Source: a virus
Lineage: Duplodnaviria; Heunggongvirae; Uroviricota; Caudoviricetes
Length of the DNA: 8,036 nt
IMG/VR virus record: IMGVR_UViG_2703718851_000009
Reading direction: 5' to 3' (one strand)
The notes under the pieces were generated by a model. The model searched no databases. It saw only the letters and a list, made by a program, of their open reading frames with translations, and had not been told where the DNA came from. The first letter of the stretch is position 1. Each line of letters begins with the position of its first letter. Made by a program: the position numbers and the translations under genes. Shown piece by piece: positions 3,181-8,036 of the stretch.

Positions 3181-3251
3181 AAAGAAAACCCTCGCCATCA
3201 GGCGATTATTGAGTCAATTATGTTTCCATAAATGCCCCCGCAGGGGCATTT
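3181..3251 (-). terminator. Intercistronic hairpins between the YfdQ-like and HD genes; possible partial terminator or attenuator
   Basis: Perfect 9-bp stem AAATGCCCC/GGGGCATTT with 4-nt loop at 3230-3251. A second 5-bp stem TCGCC/GGCGA at 3192-3205 is followed on the minus-strand RNA by GGGUUUUCUUU. Confidence 0.35.
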
Positions 3252-3263
3252 GCAGTAATGAAA

Positions 3264-4088
3264 TCAGGCGTTGAAAGTACCAATAAAGGTTTCTACTTTG
3301 CTGTCCTTGAATTTCTCAACAAGCAGATCACGAAATTCGTTAGCCATTTCTTCCTGCACTGCTTCCAGCTGAATAATGCGCAGAACCAGTACAGGACGAT
3401 CGCCAGTGATAATGCTGAGGCGTAATTTAAATGGACGTTCTTTCAGGCCTTCAAACGGAACGCATTTAAATTCAAATGCCACTGGCATAATGTCTTTGGT
3501 CTTCGCTTCGACAGACTCCATCAGGGAGCGTTTGCCGCTGAAGTCATTATCTTCAAAATCAGCGGTCTGGTTTGCTTCAATCGTGATTTTACGGACTGCC
3601 GCAGCCGCTTTTGTTGCCTGAATAGCGTCACCATTAGCATCAAAGCCCACAAGGTAGTCGGCCCAGTCTTCAATCCATTCTGCCAGTGACTTCTGGGTGT
3701 TACGCTCGCCGTTAACAGACAGCAGAGCAGAGAACGGTGCTGTCTTTTTCAGTTTGAGAGTGGCGGTGTTATCTGCGTGACCTGGTTCATCAATAGTACC
3801 CAGGTTAAGCACACTGACGGCACGCATATTATCAGCATCGATAAAGCAGCGGGTGCCTTCATCTGCAAGATCTTTAGAATAACGGGTAAAGTCATTGATG
3901 CTGGCAGTGGAAAGCGCACCACGGAAACGGAAGCGATTTAAATTAAATTTTTCCAGATCATGAATGCGGAAATTCTCAGGCAATGCCACAGCATCGGCAC
4001 CAATCTTACTGATAATTTCATTAACACCCTGAGCAGAAATAAGGGCATGGATTTGATTAATTGCGGTTGCGTCTAAGTTCTGAGACAT
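3264..4088 (-). CDS. YfdQ-like prophage protein (DUF2303-type), 274 aa
   Basis: Full ORF with GAGGA Shine-Dalgarno 6 nt upstream of the ATG. Length and position next to the HD gene match the CPS-53 yfdQ-yfdR arrangement as I recall it. Family assignment is by context and length, not by search. Confidence 0.75.
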
Positions 4089-4153
4089 AATAAGTCCTCA
4101 CTATATAAAGATCTTCAGTGATGAGATAAATAATCAGTTTATTAAAAACGATA

Positions 4154-4516
4154 TTAATGACCTGCTGCGCGGAGTTTTCCGTCAGGTTCACCGGCAAGAG
4201 TCAGTAATTGTCCCTGGTCTTCCTGCAGAATAGTCAGGCGACCACCACGATTGACATACATCGGCGTTTCGGTGGTGTCTTCTTCGGAAATTTTCCCGCG
4301 GTTAGTTGGGCGAACATATGAGAGTTTGTGTTTGATTTTCACACGGTTCTCATCAAATGGTTCGATTTCCAGGTTGAGTGAGACCTTACCTTTGGTTTTC
4401 GTGTTCATCACACCGGAAGCGACTTCACTGAGAACTGCGCCGATTTTGGTTTCAAATACGCCGCCGTCCAGCTCCCCGATAAATGCCTGCACATCAGTAC
4501 TGCGTTCGCTAGCCAT
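4154..4516 (-). CDS. Small hypothetical prophage protein (YfdP-like), 120 aa
   Basis: The ORF track extends this to 4834 (226 aa), but the N-terminal 106 residues translate a GC-rich structured region and look non-protein-like. The ATG at 4516 has a GAGGAG Shine-Dalgarno 7 nt upstream and gives 120 aa. Confidence 0.65.
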   Translation of the reverse strand: MASERSTDVQAFIGELDGGVFETKIGAVLSEVASGVMNTKTKGKVSLNLEIEPFDENRVKIKHKLSYVRPTNRGKISEEDTTETPMYVNRGGRLTILQEDQGQLLTLAGEPDGKLRAAGH

Positions 4517-4565
4517 TTTGCTGCTCCTCATCATATCGACCCTGCAAGGCCGATTAGTTTCTCCA

Positions 4566-4652
4566 CAAAACAGAGAAGAACACCTGCGGTGGCAGCCGCC
4601 CGGATGGATTGGGTTATGAGCCCGTCGTCCGGTGATGCTCTTCTCTGTTTTG
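4566..4652. repeat. Long hairpin: 14-bp perfect inverted repeat CAAAACAGAGAAGA / TCTTCTCTGTTTTG flanking a 59-nt GC-rich interior
   Basis: Arms at 4566-4579 and 4639-4652 are exact reverse complements. The interior contains further short complementary segments such as CCGGA..TCCGG. Confidence 0.6.
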
Positions 4653-4925
4653 TAAAAAGGACGGTACCAGCCGGAAGCAAGGGTACAAACTGGTACCGCC
4701 AGGACTACACACAGCATAAAGTTGTGGTGCCGGGTGCCTCCCGGTGCCTGGCGAAGGTTGCACACCAGACGGGTGGGTATCCACAGAAGGTCGACTGTCA
4801 GCCTCAACCTTAACCCGCGTGCGCTGAGCCGCATTCACCACAACGCTAAGGATTCTCTCTGGTTGAAAATACTTAGCTGTTATGTGCCTGCTTTTAGCCA
4901 CATCAGGCGAGGTGGACCTGGTTAT

Positions 4926-4971
4926 TCCCCAACAACAAGGATTCGGTTAATCTGGATATCCCCAACAACAA
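4926..4971 (+). repeat. Two copies of the 13-bp direct repeat TCCCCAACAACAA, spaced 33 bp
   Basis: Exact copies at 4926-4938 and 4959-4971, immediately upstream of the plus-strand ORF start. Confidence 0.6.
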
Positions 4972-4985
4972 TAAGAGTATTCAAT

Positions 4986-5501
4986 GTGATCGCTGAATTA
5001 ACGGCAGCAATGACGGCTATTCGTGAAACAGCCCAGATTGCAAAACTAATGAACGAGGCAAAAACTCAAGCTGAAGTAAATGCGGCTATTGGTGAGCTGA
5101 ACTCAAAGCTTGCGTCTATTCAGCGCGAATGCGTGTCTCTCGTTGAACTGGTGGGCTCTTATCAAGAAATAAATGCTTCTCTCAAAGCTAAAATTGCAGA
5201 ATTCGAAAACTTTGAGGCTCAGACGGAAGGCTATATCCTTAACCAACTTGAGTCGGGTACTTTTGTATACTCGAAGGAGGTAATCGTGAACGGTGGCAGC
5301 ATAACCATGCATCTTTGCCCAAAATGTTTTGGACAAAAGATAGTATCGATACTTCAACCATTCCCGGTTAGCGAAGATGAGCTTTTTCATAAAAGCAGGT
5401 GCCTCCACTGTGAAAATAAGTTTCTGATGAATAAAAATCCGGATTACGTATCGCCTCCATCCATTGAGGAGTTGTCCAGAAAACTTAACGGCAATCTGTA
5501 G
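4986..5501 (+). CDS. Orphan hypothetical protein, about 163-171 aa: predicted helical N-terminal half and C-terminal four-Cys (CPKC...CLHC) zinc-ribbon-like motif
   Basis: Plus-strand ORF opposite to all flanking early-left genes, AT-rich relative to its flanks, with a protein-like translation. Start is ambiguous: in-frame GTG at 4986 or ATG at 5010, both with weak Shine-Dalgarno. The ORF-track start at 4722 is rejected because the upstream part translates the structured region. An intrinsic terminator follows. Confidence 0.6.
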   Translation: MIAELTAAMTAIRETAQIAKLMNEAKTQAEVNAAIGELNSKLASIQRECVSLVELVGSYQEINASLKAKIAEFENFEAQTEGYILNQLESGTFVYSKEVIVNGGSITMHLCPKCFGQKIVSILQPFPVSEDELFHKSRCLHCENKFLMNKNPDYVSPPSIEELSRKLNGNL

Positions 5502-5540
5502 ATTACTACTGTTGTGGATATCCAGATTGTTAAAGAGCTA

Positions 5541-5563
5541 AGCGTCCTGTAGGGCGCTTTTTT
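5541..5563 (+). terminator. Rho-independent terminator for the plus-strand orphan gene
   Basis: 7-bp stem AGCGTCC/GGGCGCT (one G-U pair) with loop TGTA, followed by TTTTTT, 40 nt after the TAG stop at 5499-5501. Confidence 0.6.
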
Positions 5564-5649
5564 GTTGCTAACGAATCATCCTGGACTTCATATGCCCCAG
5601 GCGGCTACTTCGCGGGCGTCCTGCCTGTTCGTTATCTTTGATATAAAAT

Positions 5650-5699
5650 CTAACTTAACTTAGTTATCATGGCAAGAGAAAACACCAAACTTTTCTTAG
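5650..5699. promoter_or_regulatory. Putative OL: two 14-bp operator-like sites, CTAACttaaCTTAG (5650-5663) and CAAACttttCTTAG (5686-5699)
   Basis: Same 5-N4-5 architecture and CTTAG half-site as the two sites between cI and cro. Located just downstream of the cI stop, where OL/pL is expected. A possible leftward promoter (-35 TTGCCA at 5675-5670, -10 TAGATT at 5652-5647 on the minus strand) is inference only. Confidence 0.45.
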
Positions 5700-5728
5700 T
5701 TCGGTGCCTTAGTTAGAGAAGAGAGGTC

Positions 5729-6355
5729 TTAGAGTTCGTATTGAACTCCTTTGACTACACCAATGATAAGGCAATTACCATTGATAGGGATGTTGGGATA
5801 CCGAGGATTTAATGGCACTAAAAACTTTTGAGGGCCATCGATGACTAATTTTTTTACTGTAGCTTCGTTTGTTCCATCAAGTCGAGCGATGACTATTTTT
5901 CCATGACGAGGTTCTGCATCTGGATCTACAATCACTGTTGCGCCTTCTGGTATTGTTGGGAGGCCATTAGGGTTAGTCATGGAGTCACCTTTAACCTCTA
6001 ATGCAAATGAGTTATCACCAACCTTTAATGATGTATCTACCCACTTGTCCACTTCACTAAACACTTCTGCTGCCCTGCACTCAGTAAACTGCCCAGCCTG
6101 AACCCACGATATTACAGGAACTCTGCGCATGTTTGTGACGAGTTTGCCTTCAAACTCAGCACCATAAAGAATGTAATCTATTGACGTATTGAAGAACTTC
6201 GCTAATTTCGAAAGTGCCTCCCCGCCAGGGGTATTGATGTCTTTCTCCCAGTACCCCACAGCAACGTCGCTTACTCCACAAAATTTACCCAATTCTTTCT
6301 GGGACGTTCTGGTAACTCTTCTCAGAGCTTTTATACGCTGACCAACCGTTTCCAT
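5729..6355 (-). CDS. cI: CI/C2-type prophage repressor: N-terminal XRE-family HTH plus C-terminal LexA-like S24 autopeptidase domain, 208 aa
   Basis: HTH region QKELGKFCGVSDVAVGYWE, Ala-Gly autocleavage site in ISWVQAGQF, Ser nucleophile in GDSM and Lys in TVKKLV. Strong resemblance to the P22 C2 repressor family (ISWVSAGQW, QGDSM, NPxYP, INGNC motifs) as recalled. Transcribed divergently from cro. Confidence 0.95.
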   Translation of the reverse strand: METVGQRIKALRRVTRTSQKELGKFCGVSDVAVGYWEKDINTPGGEALSKLAKFFNTSIDYILYGAEFEGKLVTNMRRVPVISWVQAGQFTECRAAEVFSEVDKWVDTSLKVGDNSFALEVKGDSMTNPNGLPTIPEGATVIVDPDAEPRHGKIVIARLDGTNEATVKKLVIDGPQKFLVPLNPRYPNIPINGNCLIIGVVKGVQYEL

Positions 6356-6377
6356 AGGAGCACCATTTCTTTAATTG

Positions 6378-6440
6378 CTAAGTAATCTTAGTTTTTATTG
6401 ACCAAAGATAGATTTGTAATTAGCATCTAACAAAACTTAG
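6378..6440. promoter_or_regulatory. Putative OR/PR: operator-like sites CTAAGtaatCTTAG (6378-6391, perfect palindrome) and CTAACaaaaCTTAG (6427-6440) bracketing a sigma70-like promoter towards cro
   Basis: -35 TTGACC at 6398-6403, 17-bp spacer, -10 TAGCAT at 6421-6426. The second operator overlaps the -10/start site. GGAGGG Shine-Dalgarno at 6444-6449 precedes the cro ATG. Confidence 0.55.
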
Positions 6441-6452
6441 TTTGGAGGGCGT

Positions 6453-6653
6453 ATGACAACTGACGATATCGAAAGCTACTTCGGCAGTATTGAGAAAGTT
6501 GCTGCTTTTTTCGGCATAACAACTGAAGCCGTTTATCAGTGGCGAAACCGTCCGGGCCAGTTAATTCCAAAAGGACGTGCAGCAGAAGCTGCATATAGAA
6601 CTTGCGGACGGTTGCCATTTAAACCTGAGCTTTATGAAAAATCTAATGGATAA
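6453..6653 (+). CDS. cro: Cro-like HTH regulator (YdaS/Cro family), 66 aa
   Basis: Small HTH protein (FGITTEAVYQWRNR) divergent from cI, with a C-terminal ...KPELY motif typical of YdaS-type Cro proteins. Good Shine-Dalgarno. Confidence 0.85.
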   Translation: MTTDDIESYFGSIEKVAAFFGITTEAVYQWRNRPGQLIPKGRAAEAAYRTCGRLPFKPELYEKSNG

Positions 6654-7242
6654 ATCGATTAACAGAAACCACAGAACGATGAGGCTAACCGTGGGTAAGC
6701 ATCACTGGAAAGTAGAAAAACAGCCTGAGTGGTACGTGAAAGCTGTCAGAAAAACTATCGCAAAGTTGCCGGGTGGTTACGCTGAAGCAGCTGACTGGCT
6801 GGATGTAACAGAGAACGCATTATTTAACCGCCTTCGTGCCGATGGCGATCAGATTTTCCCGCTGGGATGGGCAATGATTTTGCAACGTGCTGGTGGAACT
6901 CACTTCATTGCTGACGCAGTGGCGCAGTCTGCAAATGGCGTCTTTGTGTCTCTTCCTGACGTCGAGGATGTGGACAACGCCGATATCAACCAACGCCTGC
7001 TGGAAGTCATTGAACAGATCGGCAGTTATTCAAAACAGATTCGTTCAGCAATTGAAGACGGTGTAGTGGAACCGCATGAGAAGACAGCAATTAACGATGA
7101 GCTGTACCTCTCAATTTCGAAGCTGCAGGAGCATGCAGCACTGGTCTACAAAATCTTTTGCGTTTCAGAAAGTAGTGACGCCCGCGAGTGTGCAGCTCCG
7201 GGCGCCGTGGCGTGTCGTGACTGTGGAGAAACTAACGCATGA
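6646..7242 (+). CDS. CII-like / YdaT-family regulatory protein, about 198 aa
   Basis: Follows cro on the same strand. Resemblance to the YdaT family (CII functional analogue in Rac-type prophages) is recalled, not searched. The ORF-track start at 6577 overlaps cro by 77 nt; the ATG at 6646 overlaps only the cro stop. No clear Shine-Dalgarno, so the start is uncertain (alternatives 6634, 6679). Confidence 0.65.
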
Positions 7243-7586: not shown

Positions 7587-8036
7587 ATGAGCACTAAATT
7601 AACCGGCTATGTATGGGATGGTTGCGCAGCGTCAGGCATGAAATTATCCAGCGTGGCAATTATGGCCCGCCTGGCTGATTTCAGTAATGACGAAGGTGTG
7701 TGCTGGCCATCGATTGAAACCATTGCACGCCAGATTGGCGCGGGGATGAGTACCGTCAGAACGGCTATCGCACGGCTGGAAGCAGAAGGCTGGTTAACGC
7801 GTAAGGCGCGTCGCCAGGGTAACCGCAATGCGTCGAATGTTTATCAGCTTAACGTTGCGAAGCTTCAGGCAGCGGCATTTTCTCAACTGTCAGATTCTGA
7901 CCCGTCAAAATCTGACGCATCAAAATCTGACCCGTCAAAATTTGATGCGTCGAAATCTGGCAAAAAAGCGGGTTTTCACCCGTCAGAATCTGGCGGGGAT
8001 CCGTCAGTAAAATCAAAACATGATCCGTCAGATAAA
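7587..8036 (+). CDS. Replication initiator (lambda O / P22 gp18-like), 5' partial, runs off the window end
   Basis: Not in the ORF track because it has no stop inside the window. ATG at 7587 with GAGG 6 nt upstream; open for all 150 codons to 8036. Translation MSTKLTGYVWDGCAASGMKLSSVAIMARLADFSNDEGVCWPSIETIARQIGAGMSTVRTAIARLEAEGWLTRK looks like a winged-helix N-terminal domain, followed by SDPSK-type pentapeptide repeats encoded by the iterons. Confidence 0.7.
   Translation, partial: MSTKLTGYVWDGCAASGMKLSSVAIMARLADFSNDEGVCWPSIETIARQIGAGMSTVRTAIARLEAEGWLTRKARRQGNRNASNVYQLNVAKLQAAAFSQLSDSDPSKSDASKSDPSKFDASKSGKKAGFHPSESGGDPSVKSKHDPSDK
7889..8036 (+). repeat. Iteron-like tandem repeats (about 15-bp period, each with internal dyad such as TCAGAttCTGA or GTCAaaatcTGAC): putative phage origin inside the initiator gene
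   Basis: At least five consecutive ~15-bp units at 7889-7960 and three more degenerate CCGTCAGA-type copies up to 8036. Lambda ori likewise sits inside the O coding sequence. Confidence 0.6.

Follow-up and report, generated by a model that had tools for sequence, protein, structure and literature searches.

A P22-like immunity region with CTAAG-type putative operators and a conserved folded RNA at the start of the pL transcript in an apparently N-less lambdoid prophage

The prophage and its immunity region

We analysed a stretch of 8,036 nucleotides (nt) of tailed-phage DNA (Caudoviricetes; IMG/VR record IMGVR_UViG_2703718851_000009), referred to throughout as the window, with a focus on the immunity region at positions 5564-6452 and on the early-left transcript that would leave it from the promoter pL. 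The region probably serves a lambdoid prophage as its immunity switch; it has the construction of immC in P22 and phage 21, apparently lacks N, and carries a folded leader RNA, here named R1, together with a boxA sequence. The window matches a prophage of Escherichia coli strain N61 with 100% identity; this prophage adjoins tRNA-Arg and fimZ (the argU/fimZ, or DLP12, site) and extends from intD to quuD. On the minus strand the genes int, an xis-like gene, a PAPS-reductase-like gene, yfdR, yfdQ and yfdP follow in that order; about 1.1 kb without a minus-strand gene separates yfdP from the repressor gene cI, after which come cro, the CII-like gene ymfL and the replication genes. Most of the segment from 4100 to 6700 is shared by at least 156 complete E. 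coli genomes and by phages 569R4 and 689R6. The components of the switch, with promoters taken from a promoter scan and the left and right putative operators labelled OL and OR, are as follows.

5650-5663: OL1, CTAACTTAACTTAG, within the 17-nt spacer of pL and overlapping its -10 hexamer
5675-5647, minus strand: predicted pL, TTGCCA-17-TAGATT, with a predicted start near 5640
5676-5710, minus strand: hairpin and U-run after the cI stop, -15.1 kcal/mol, z -2.3, overlapping OL2
5686-5699: OL2, CAAACTTTTCTTAG, with one good half-site, 36 bp from OL1 and upstream of the pL -35
5729-6355, minus strand: cI repressor, 208 amino acids, HTH_3 (PF01381) and Peptidase_S24 (PF00717) domains
6378-6391: OR3, CTAAGTAATCTTAG, a perfect palindrome, nearest the cI start, between it and the pR -35
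6398-6426, plus strand: predicted pR, TTGACC-17-TAGCAT, both hexamers conserved in relatives, in the layout of P22 pR
6403-6416: OR2, CAAAGATAGATTTG, degenerate, overlapping the pR -35 by one base and otherwise within the spacer
6427-6440: OR1, CTAACAAAACTTAG, beginning right after the pR -10 and covering the predicted pR start
6453-6653, plus strand: Cro, 66 amino acids, P22_Cro family (PF14549, 42.8 bits against a cut-off of 30.2; phrog_409 and phrog_35)

The repressor shares 49% identity with cI of phage 21 (across 96% of its length) and 47% with P22-like C2 proteins, and its translation contains the motifs VQA-GQF, GDSM and VKKL. The first of these is the lambda-type Ala-Gly cleavage motif known from LexA-family repressors, and together the three indicate that cI is probably RecA-inducible. 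The hairpin at 5676-5710 is the probable terminator of cI, and its stem covaries among relatives (CACC/GGTG, CATC/GATG, AACC/GGTT).

Operator sites and their conservation

A sequence-only reading of this DNA had recognised four operator-like sites, two on each side of cI. All four are there, but it overlooked a fifth, the degenerate OR2, whose centre lies 25 and 24 bp from the centres of its neighbours. Its description of three sites as one-mismatch variants of a perfect palindrome needs amending for OL2, which is one mismatch from CTAAS-N4-CTTAG and two from the perfect palindrome. Nor does OL directly abut the cI stop, as had been supposed: between the stop codon (5729-5731) and the end of the nearest full site (5699) is a gap of 29 nt that holds the 5' arm of the putative cI terminator. 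A position of OL close to the repressor gene is normal in P22 and phage 21, and its placement here is therefore ordinary. A lone CTAAG half-site overlapping the stop codon was considered as a third OL site and rejected, as it is not conserved in relatives.

The significance of these sites was assessed by counting and by comparison. A search of both strands for CTAAS-N4-CTTAG with at most one mismatch returns seven matches where 0.53 are expected, and none of 200 shuffled sequences reaches seven. For relatives of the window cI we gathered 79 loci belonging to other species together with 80 viral contigs. Operator dyads lie at fixed positions beside cI homologues of 64-100% identity from about ten enterobacterial genera. 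At 20 loci with cI proteins 64-90% identical to that of the window (from Enterobacter, Kosakonia, Kluyvera, Serratia, Rahnella, Yersinia, Rouxiella, Providencia and Proteus) the same dyads are found in the same places, with half-sites kept and central bases different; a constant 49 bp separates the strong OR sites, OR1 and OR3, and OL1 falls within the pL spacer every time. The strict part of each dyad is the outer CTAA/TTAG and the fifth base of the half-site varies, which explains the "C/G" in the consensus first drawn up for these sites. OR2 is kept as CnAAT-N4-CTTTG at the fixed 24/25-bp spacing in 21 loci, and the CTAAGAT of OR3 is invariant on the cI-sense strand. Within the 80 contigs, whose cI proteins are 99-100% identical to that of the window, sites are unchanged or differ by one base: OL1, OL2 and OR3 are unchanged in 72-77 contigs (77 for OL1), and OR1 reads CTAATAAAACTTAG in 64. 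The 14-mers are thus conserved among phages with near-identical repressors. Phage SfV shares the flanks of this region, has unrelated cI and cro genes, and lacks the window 14-mers; its own dyads are of the type TGTACC.

These sites fall into place when set beside P22 and phage 21, whose annotated operators (ATTTAAG-N4-CTTAAAT) align position for position with the sites and promoters of the window. Both systems have a repressor of the S24 family, a Cro of family PF14549, a 5-N4-5 dyad with an AAG...CTT core, an OL1 in the pL spacer, and a tripartite OR in which OR2 carries a T-to-A variant half-site. The P22 OR2, ACTAAAGATTCCTTTAGT, lies over the pR -35 with the variant half-site TAAAG and is the positional homologue of CAAAGATAGATTTG. 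The spacing from OL1 to OL2 is 35 bp in phage 21 and 36 bp in the window family, with one degenerate OL2 half-site in both; the pL of phage 21, TTGACC-AATAA-ATTAAGAAGTCTTAAAT, compares with TTGACC-AACAA-ACTAAGTTAAGTTAGAT in the window family, whose other members have the pL hexamers TTGACC-17-TAGATT; and a terminator is annotated at the same place after the phage 21 repressor gene. The systems differ in the half-site, which is TTAAG in P22 and phage 21 and CTAAG in the window and represents a new immunity specificity; in the number of left operators, of which P22 has OL1-3 whereas only two are recognisable here (OL3 was not found); and in what follows pL, which in P22 and phage 21 is directly boxA, boxB and N, and in the window R1 and boxA without an N gene. 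With the layout matched nearly base for base, the 14-mers appear to be the operators of a P22-type switch of new specificity, and by this homology we consider it highly probable both that all five are operators and that the switch logic is that of P22. The proposal in the sequence-only reading that the 14-mers are repressor operators overlapping pL and pR is thereby strengthened, given their conservation with the repressor, their variable spacers and their P22/21-like positions.

The alternative that the 14-mers arose by chance, or are AT-rich promoter-associated repeats that bind no protein, is barely credible. Such an account can draw on the AT-richness of the region and on the degeneracy of two of the five sites, OR2 and OL2, but it must contend with shuffled sequences that never reach the observed count, with a fixed register to the promoters, with half-sites conserved and centres variable across some ten genera, and with the one-to-one correspondence to the annotated P22 and phage 21 operators.

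If the sites are operators, the switch would work as follows. The LexA-type cI and the P22-type Cro would be transcribed divergently from the tripartite OR, with the bipartite OL just past the cI terminator, and repressor dimers would recognise the 14-bp dyads CTAAG-N4-CTTAG through a strict CTAA/TTAG core and a free centre. As OR1 covers the pR start, OR2 touches the pR -35, and OL1 covers the pL spacer and -10, occupancy of OR1 and OR2 would block pR and occupancy of OL1 would block pL, so that cI would shut off both, while OR3 would lie over the cI-proximal promoter region. The repressor probably autoregulates, and Cro would act at the same sites. Two candidate -10 hexamers for pRM were considered, TAAGAT within OR3 and TAGCAA/TAGnnT at its edge, and neither has a convincing -35; given the invariance of CTAAGAT on the cI-sense strand, TAAGAT may be the pRM -10.

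The layout of the immunity region is therefore ordinary, judged by its sequence, and the CTAAG type is already present, uncharacterised, in sequenced phages. The operator set adds one specificity (CTAAG as against TTAAG) to the well-understood P22/21 switch, which is not surprising, and it should be useful for annotation and for the study of repressor-operator co-evolution.

A conserved three-way-junction RNA in the pL leader

Downstream of pL two elements stand where P22 and phage 21 have boxA, boxB and N.

5633-5567, minus strand: R1, 67 nt, a closed three-way junction of stems P1, P2 and P3 (RNAalifold)
5538-5528, minus strand: rrn-type boxA, GCTCTTTAACA, a perfect 11/11 match to GYTCTTTAANA, about 30 nt after R1

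About 6 nt separate the predicted pL start from stem P1 of R1 (AACGAACA/UGAUUCGUU), which encloses P2 (GGC-AGGAC-GCC) and P3 (CCUGG/CCAGG). BLAST over the gathered loci recovered many variants with compensatory changes. In a MAFFT alignment of 17 of these, 97.4% of cells are paired and the covariation score is 0.329, where shuffles give 84.7% and 0.090, and partners slid out of register pair in at most 38%; across the alignments scored, the value ranges from 0.33 to 0.42 with 0.09-0.10 in shuffles. When ZF40, ST64B, SPN3UB and mEp237 are included, double changes are seen in 10 of the 16 pairs. A pattern scan of IMG/VR finds R1 in at least 120 contigs, with one copy per contig, and 103 distinct R1 sequences were found. 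In a set of 99 distinct sequences, pairing holds in 94-100% for pairs 2-6 of P1 and pairs 1-4 of P3, mostly with three or four pair types; P1 itself falls into three unrelated sequence classes, all of which pair; and the junction, AGGCAGGAcGCCCACGaAGUAGCcGCC ... GGAUGA, is nearly invariant. From this pattern of variation R1 is almost certainly a real structured RNA.

The genomic setting of R1 is consistent with a place at the start of early-left transcripts. In 107 of 151 contexts R1 is preceded by a promoter-like site whose -10 ends 12-15 nt before P1, and 86 of the 151 have an S24 repressor open reading frame (ORF) upstream in the same orientation, while both the type of repressor upstream and the genes downstream vary freely among phages. 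Carriers include SfV, SfII, SfIV, ST64B, ZF40, SPN3UB, mEp237 and mEp460, and in none of these phage records is R1 annotated as an RNA feature. Rfam has no match at 5528-5633 with E <= 1, and a full-text search with R1 core strings returned only unrelated primer matches, with an earlier mention within the put-like RNA literature being possible. R1 is an apparently undescribed, strongly conserved folded RNA. Rahnella prophages have a long, nearly perfect hairpin, ACAACGGGAAGGACACTGG...CCAGTGTTCTTCCCGTTGT, in place of R1 downstream of pL, and the first segment after pL is therefore a mosaic slot for different structured RNAs.

An aptamer-sized three-way junction with covarying stems and invariant junction nucleotides, placed at the extreme 5' end of a transcript made at a decision point, might suggest a riboswitch-like leader that senses a ligand or signal and gates early-left transcription. 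We think this very improbable, as there is no conserved expression platform, the sequence downstream of R1 differing between phages, and no match to an Rfam riboswitch.

The boxA after R1

The boxA that follows R1 agrees at every position with the gamma-proteobacterial consensus GYTCTTTAANA (bioRxiv 10.1101/091223). It is the one perfect match in the window, where 0.05 are expected, and the only one from int to Q. The 13-mer that includes it, AGCTCTTTAACAA at 5539-5527, matches 12 of 13 positions of what we take to be the rrn boxA, UGCUCUUUAACAA. In prophages from Kluyvera, Kosakonia and Xenorhabdus, too, R1 is followed by boxA. Where boxA is missing, several contexts, SfV among them, have a gene within about 70 nt after R1, and this fits a role for boxA against Rho on untranslated RNA. 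The likeness to the rrn boxA and its Nus complex (NusB, NusE, NusA, NusG, SuhB) lies in the consensus match ahead of a long untranslated RNA, and the difference in the location of the window boxA in a phage early operon without N or boxB. On sequence grounds, the chance that it is a functional Nus site seems to us a little short of even.

Absence of a recognisable N gene

Minus-strand ORFs between pL and yfdP have no match to an N family in PHROGs or Pfam, in a search whose positive control, phage 21 N, matches phrog_271 at 2.5e-36; tblastn with the N proteins of lambda and phage 21 finds nothing from int to quuD; and the first genes after pL in related phages likewise have no N family match. 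A boxB hairpin was sought 3' of boxA and none is present: a variable cassette junction lies there, with no conserved hairpin. The remark in the sequence-only reading that no arginine-rich N-like ORF follows OL is borne out by these negatives, and an N gene is very probably absent. A crude scan for arginine-rich N-termini downstream of R1 (137 contexts) missed the phage 21 N control and was discarded. Absence of N has been reported for SfII, SfIV and SfV (PMC3851460) and for phage LLS, for which a mechanism mediated by an RNA like the put RNA of HK022 was suggested (PMC12315714). Compared with the N/nut system of lambda, the window has a boxA and has leader elements as the first features after pL, and it differs in having neither an N gene nor a boxB 3' of boxA.

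An N-like or other antiterminator protein, encoded by this phage or by a co-resident prophage, might nonetheless have escaped recognition, with R1 serving as an oversized boxB-like site alongside boxA. A boxA with a structured RNA nearby does resemble a nut site, and R1 is carried by mEp237 and mEp460, members of the mEp collection of Nus-dependent coliphages (PMC11893012). N-like genes may also lie elsewhere, as illustrated by mEp021 gp17, which is N-like and sits downstream of nutR1 (PMC11893012). We consider a hidden antiterminator unlikely all the same: there is no N family match in the ORFs tested, the tblastn search from int to Q was negative, the order of R1 then boxA is the reverse of that in lambda nut, and the genes after R1 differ completely among phages, so that no conserved partner gene lies beside it.

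R1 and the put RNAs of HK022

The most obvious precedent for an RNA in this position is put, which in cis enables readthrough of terminators, an activity lost with mutations in the beta-prime zinc-binding domain. R1 resembles the HK022 put RNAs in being an RNA of about 70 nt at the start of a pL transcript in a lambdoid phage without an N antiterminator, with covarying stems, conserved unpaired nucleotides and terminators downstream. It differs in fold, put consisting of two side-by-side stem-loops whereas R1 is a closed three-way junction, and in number, put being present as putL and putR whereas R1 is single, with no second (putR-like) copy downstream of pR or anywhere from int to quuD. We built a covariance model of put from eight sequences (HK022 putL and putR, HK639, CobraSix, phiEt88 putL and putR, PdC23 and S9-5), with a consensus of two stem-loops, GAACGGC..GUCGG and GGCGGG..CAGGAnGA..CAAU. 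HK639 has an annotated put-like RNA, and it belongs to the HK022 type. The model recovers its own training sequences at E <= 2.4e-15, has no match at R1 and a best E of 4.2 anywhere in the window, and finds nothing significant in LLS, SfV, ZF40, ST64B, SPN3UB, mEp237 or 569R4; in the LLS early region examined the best E is 0.78, and no HK022-type put is detectable. Conversely, a model of R1 has no match in the phages with HK022-type put, and BLAST of the leader against HK022 returns short words only. With no cross-matches in either direction, membership of R1 in the put family was rejected, though R1 may still be a functional analogue of put.

The pL transcript between R1 and yfdP

Beyond R1 the pL transcript would run through the following features before it reaches a protein-coding gene in its own sense.

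5540-5559, plus strand: intrinsic terminator of the plus-strand cassette gene, located between R1 and boxA
4986-5501, plus strand: orphan gene, 171 amino acids, GTG start, with a coiled coil and a Cys4 ribbon; phrog_1244 (unknown function)
4949-4974 and 5503-5528: 26-nt inverted repeat, 85% complementary, bracketing the orphan gene
4886-4915, minus strand: pseudoknot-like element, CCACC-nn-GCCUG-nn-GUGG-n7-CAGGC, just upstream of the STnc100-like RNA
4652-4874, minus strand: STnc100/PasD-like RNA (RF02076, 41.2 bits against a gathering threshold of 47, E 2e-6, full model length)
4565-4589 and 4629-4653: 25-nt inverted repeat, 84% complementary, between the STnc100-like terminator and the yfdP start
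4154-4516, minus strand: yfdP, first protein-coding gene of the early-left set, about 1.1 kb beyond pL

Transcripts from pL cross the terminator at 5540-5559 in the opposite sense, in which it reads as a weakened hairpin with a C.A mismatch and no U-run. The orphan gene, which has no family match in Pfam or PADLOC, is a variable cassette antisense to pL; other cassettes take its place in 569R4 and SfV, and in relatives the junctions lie at AACAATCTGG after boxA on one side and at GTTGTTGGGGATA on the other, so that the site looks like a swappable moron slot. The arms of the 26-nt repeat that brackets it could pair on the pL transcript over about 530 nt.

The RNA at 4652-4874 is, by its score, a relative of STnc100 and not a curated member of the family. 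STnc100 has been linked to PasD, a small RNA of enteropathogenic E. coli, and the relatives of these are described as prophage-encoded small RNAs (bioRxiv 10.64898/2026.05.13.724894). It ends in a strong hairpin followed by U5 (4651-4700, minus strand; -28.6 kcal/mol, z -3.8), and the depositors of SfV annotated the same hairpin as a terminator. The Prokaryotic Genome Annotation Pipeline (PGAP) has placed a "frameshifted hypothetical protein" pseudogene over the STnc100-like RNA (N61 locus 6432-6742). Both stems of the pseudoknot-like element are kept in SfV with different inter-stem bases, and in LLS and Enterobacter prophages this element is first after pL and is followed by the STnc100-like RNA; the 25-nt inverted repeat is conserved in SfV, 569R4 and LLS. 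PADLOC has no match for yfdP or yfdQ.

The window thus belongs with a group of phages (SfV, SfII, SfIV, ST64B and LLS) that share its early-left genes, including yfdP-yfdQ, and its STnc100-like RNA. Within this group SfV, SfII, SfIV and ST64B also have R1, whereas cI, Cro and the operators of SfV, SfII and SfIV are unrelated to those of the window; LLS, by contrast, shares the cI type and lacks R1 and boxA.

Readthrough or termination of the pL transcript

The sequence-only reading had suggested a role in cis for the structured region (4530-4980) on the transcript from pL. What lies there is a weak STnc100 match with its own terminator, and we found nothing in support of such a role; R1 and boxA, both on the pL-sense strand, are better candidates for cis-acting elements. 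An antisense cassette stretch and the STnc100-like terminator lie ahead of yfdP, and antitermination would therefore be needed to reach it. In the mechanism we propose, R1 and boxA would act in cis to carry RNA polymerase through about 1.1 kb of untranslated RNA and past the STnc100-like terminator, so that yfdP through int are transcribed; the part of boxA would be to bring in NusB/NusE and the Nus complex against Rho, and that of R1 to act on the elongation complex in the manner of HK022 put. N-independent antitermination by R1 and boxA is a guess from the arrangement of these elements. That R1 acts on elongating RNA polymerase, by analogy with put, is a tentative proposal, and we are equally tentative in regarding R1 as a new class of cis-acting leader RNA that replaces N/nut, either alone, as a second and unrelated "put", or together with boxA and Nus factors. 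Many temperate phages of enterobacteria would use R1 in this way, among them SfV, SfII, SfIV, ST64B, ZF40, SPN3UB, mEp237 and mEp460.

There is a contrasting possibility, itself doubtful, that no processive antitermination occurs: most pL transcripts would stop at the STnc100-like terminator and give a small RNA; yfdP through int would be expressed by leaky readthrough or from internal promoters; R1 would stabilise the 5' end or bind some other factor; and boxA would be a relic at a mosaic junction. It is in keeping with the prophage-encoded small RNAs to which STnc100 and PasD are related (bioRxiv 10.64898/2026.05.13.724894), with phages of the LLS type that place the STnc100-like RNA directly after pL without R1 or boxA, and with the divergence of relatives exactly at AACAATCTGG, the end of boxA. 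It sits less well with the unpaired junction of R1, whose near invariance exceeds what a stabilising hairpin needs, or with a boxA that is perfect at 11 of 11 positions and kept in Xenorhabdus, Kluyvera and Kosakonia. A promoter scan of 4400-6750 also finds no minus-strand promoter other than pL, and hence none upstream of yfdP.

Several further points weigh against our reading of the region as a P22-type switch with R1 and boxA in place of N. At the switch, OR2 and OL2 are degenerate, the conservation of OL2 could be due in part to the terminator hairpin that contains it, and pRM is not convincingly placed. N proteins are short and divergent, and a negative search is therefore not proof of absence. 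LLS and Enterobacter prophages, the latter with cI 89-90% identical to that of the window, share the immunity type and operators and have neither R1 nor boxA after pL, so that neither element is required by this switch. Moreover, boxA follows R1 in only 39 of 151 contexts, R1 has a different fold from HK022-type put and is not detectably related to it, R1 could simply stabilise the mRNA as a 5'-terminal structure, and the pL transcript may simply stop at the small-RNA terminator. The functions given here to the switch, R1 and boxA are all deduced from sequence comparison.

The N-less state of the relatives was already known, and what is newly exposed is an unannotated leader RNA and a consensus boxA at the N/nut position. 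Most phages of the SfV-like/LLS group have a structured RNA (R1) at the put position instead of an HK022-type put, sometimes followed by an rrn boxA, which provides a concrete and testable candidate for early-left gene expression in a large phage group. If R1 or boxA drives readthrough, this would explain early expression in a widespread group that includes Shigella serotype-converting and Salmonella phages, and control of elongating RNA polymerase by RNA alone might then have a second natural example.

Other features of the window

The gene ymfL (6691-7242, plus strand) matches CII families (phrog_101 at 4e-70; Pfam Phage_CP76), and a CII-like regulator is therefore present in this phage group; the description of SfIV listed no additional regulators (cII, cIII, N) for SfII, SfIV and SfV (PMC3851460). 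PGAP treats the xis-like and DNA-binding genes beside int in strain N61 (about 1330-1735 of the window; N61 locus 3230-3635) as truncated or frameshifted pseudogenes, and the N61 prophage may therefore be excision-defective. An Rfam match to mir-5880 at 7888-7962 was dismissed as an artefact of tandem repeats in the O-like replication gene, where 4.3 copies of the 15-nt unit TCTGACCCGTCAAAA (7896-7959, plus strand) are probably the iterons of a replication origin.

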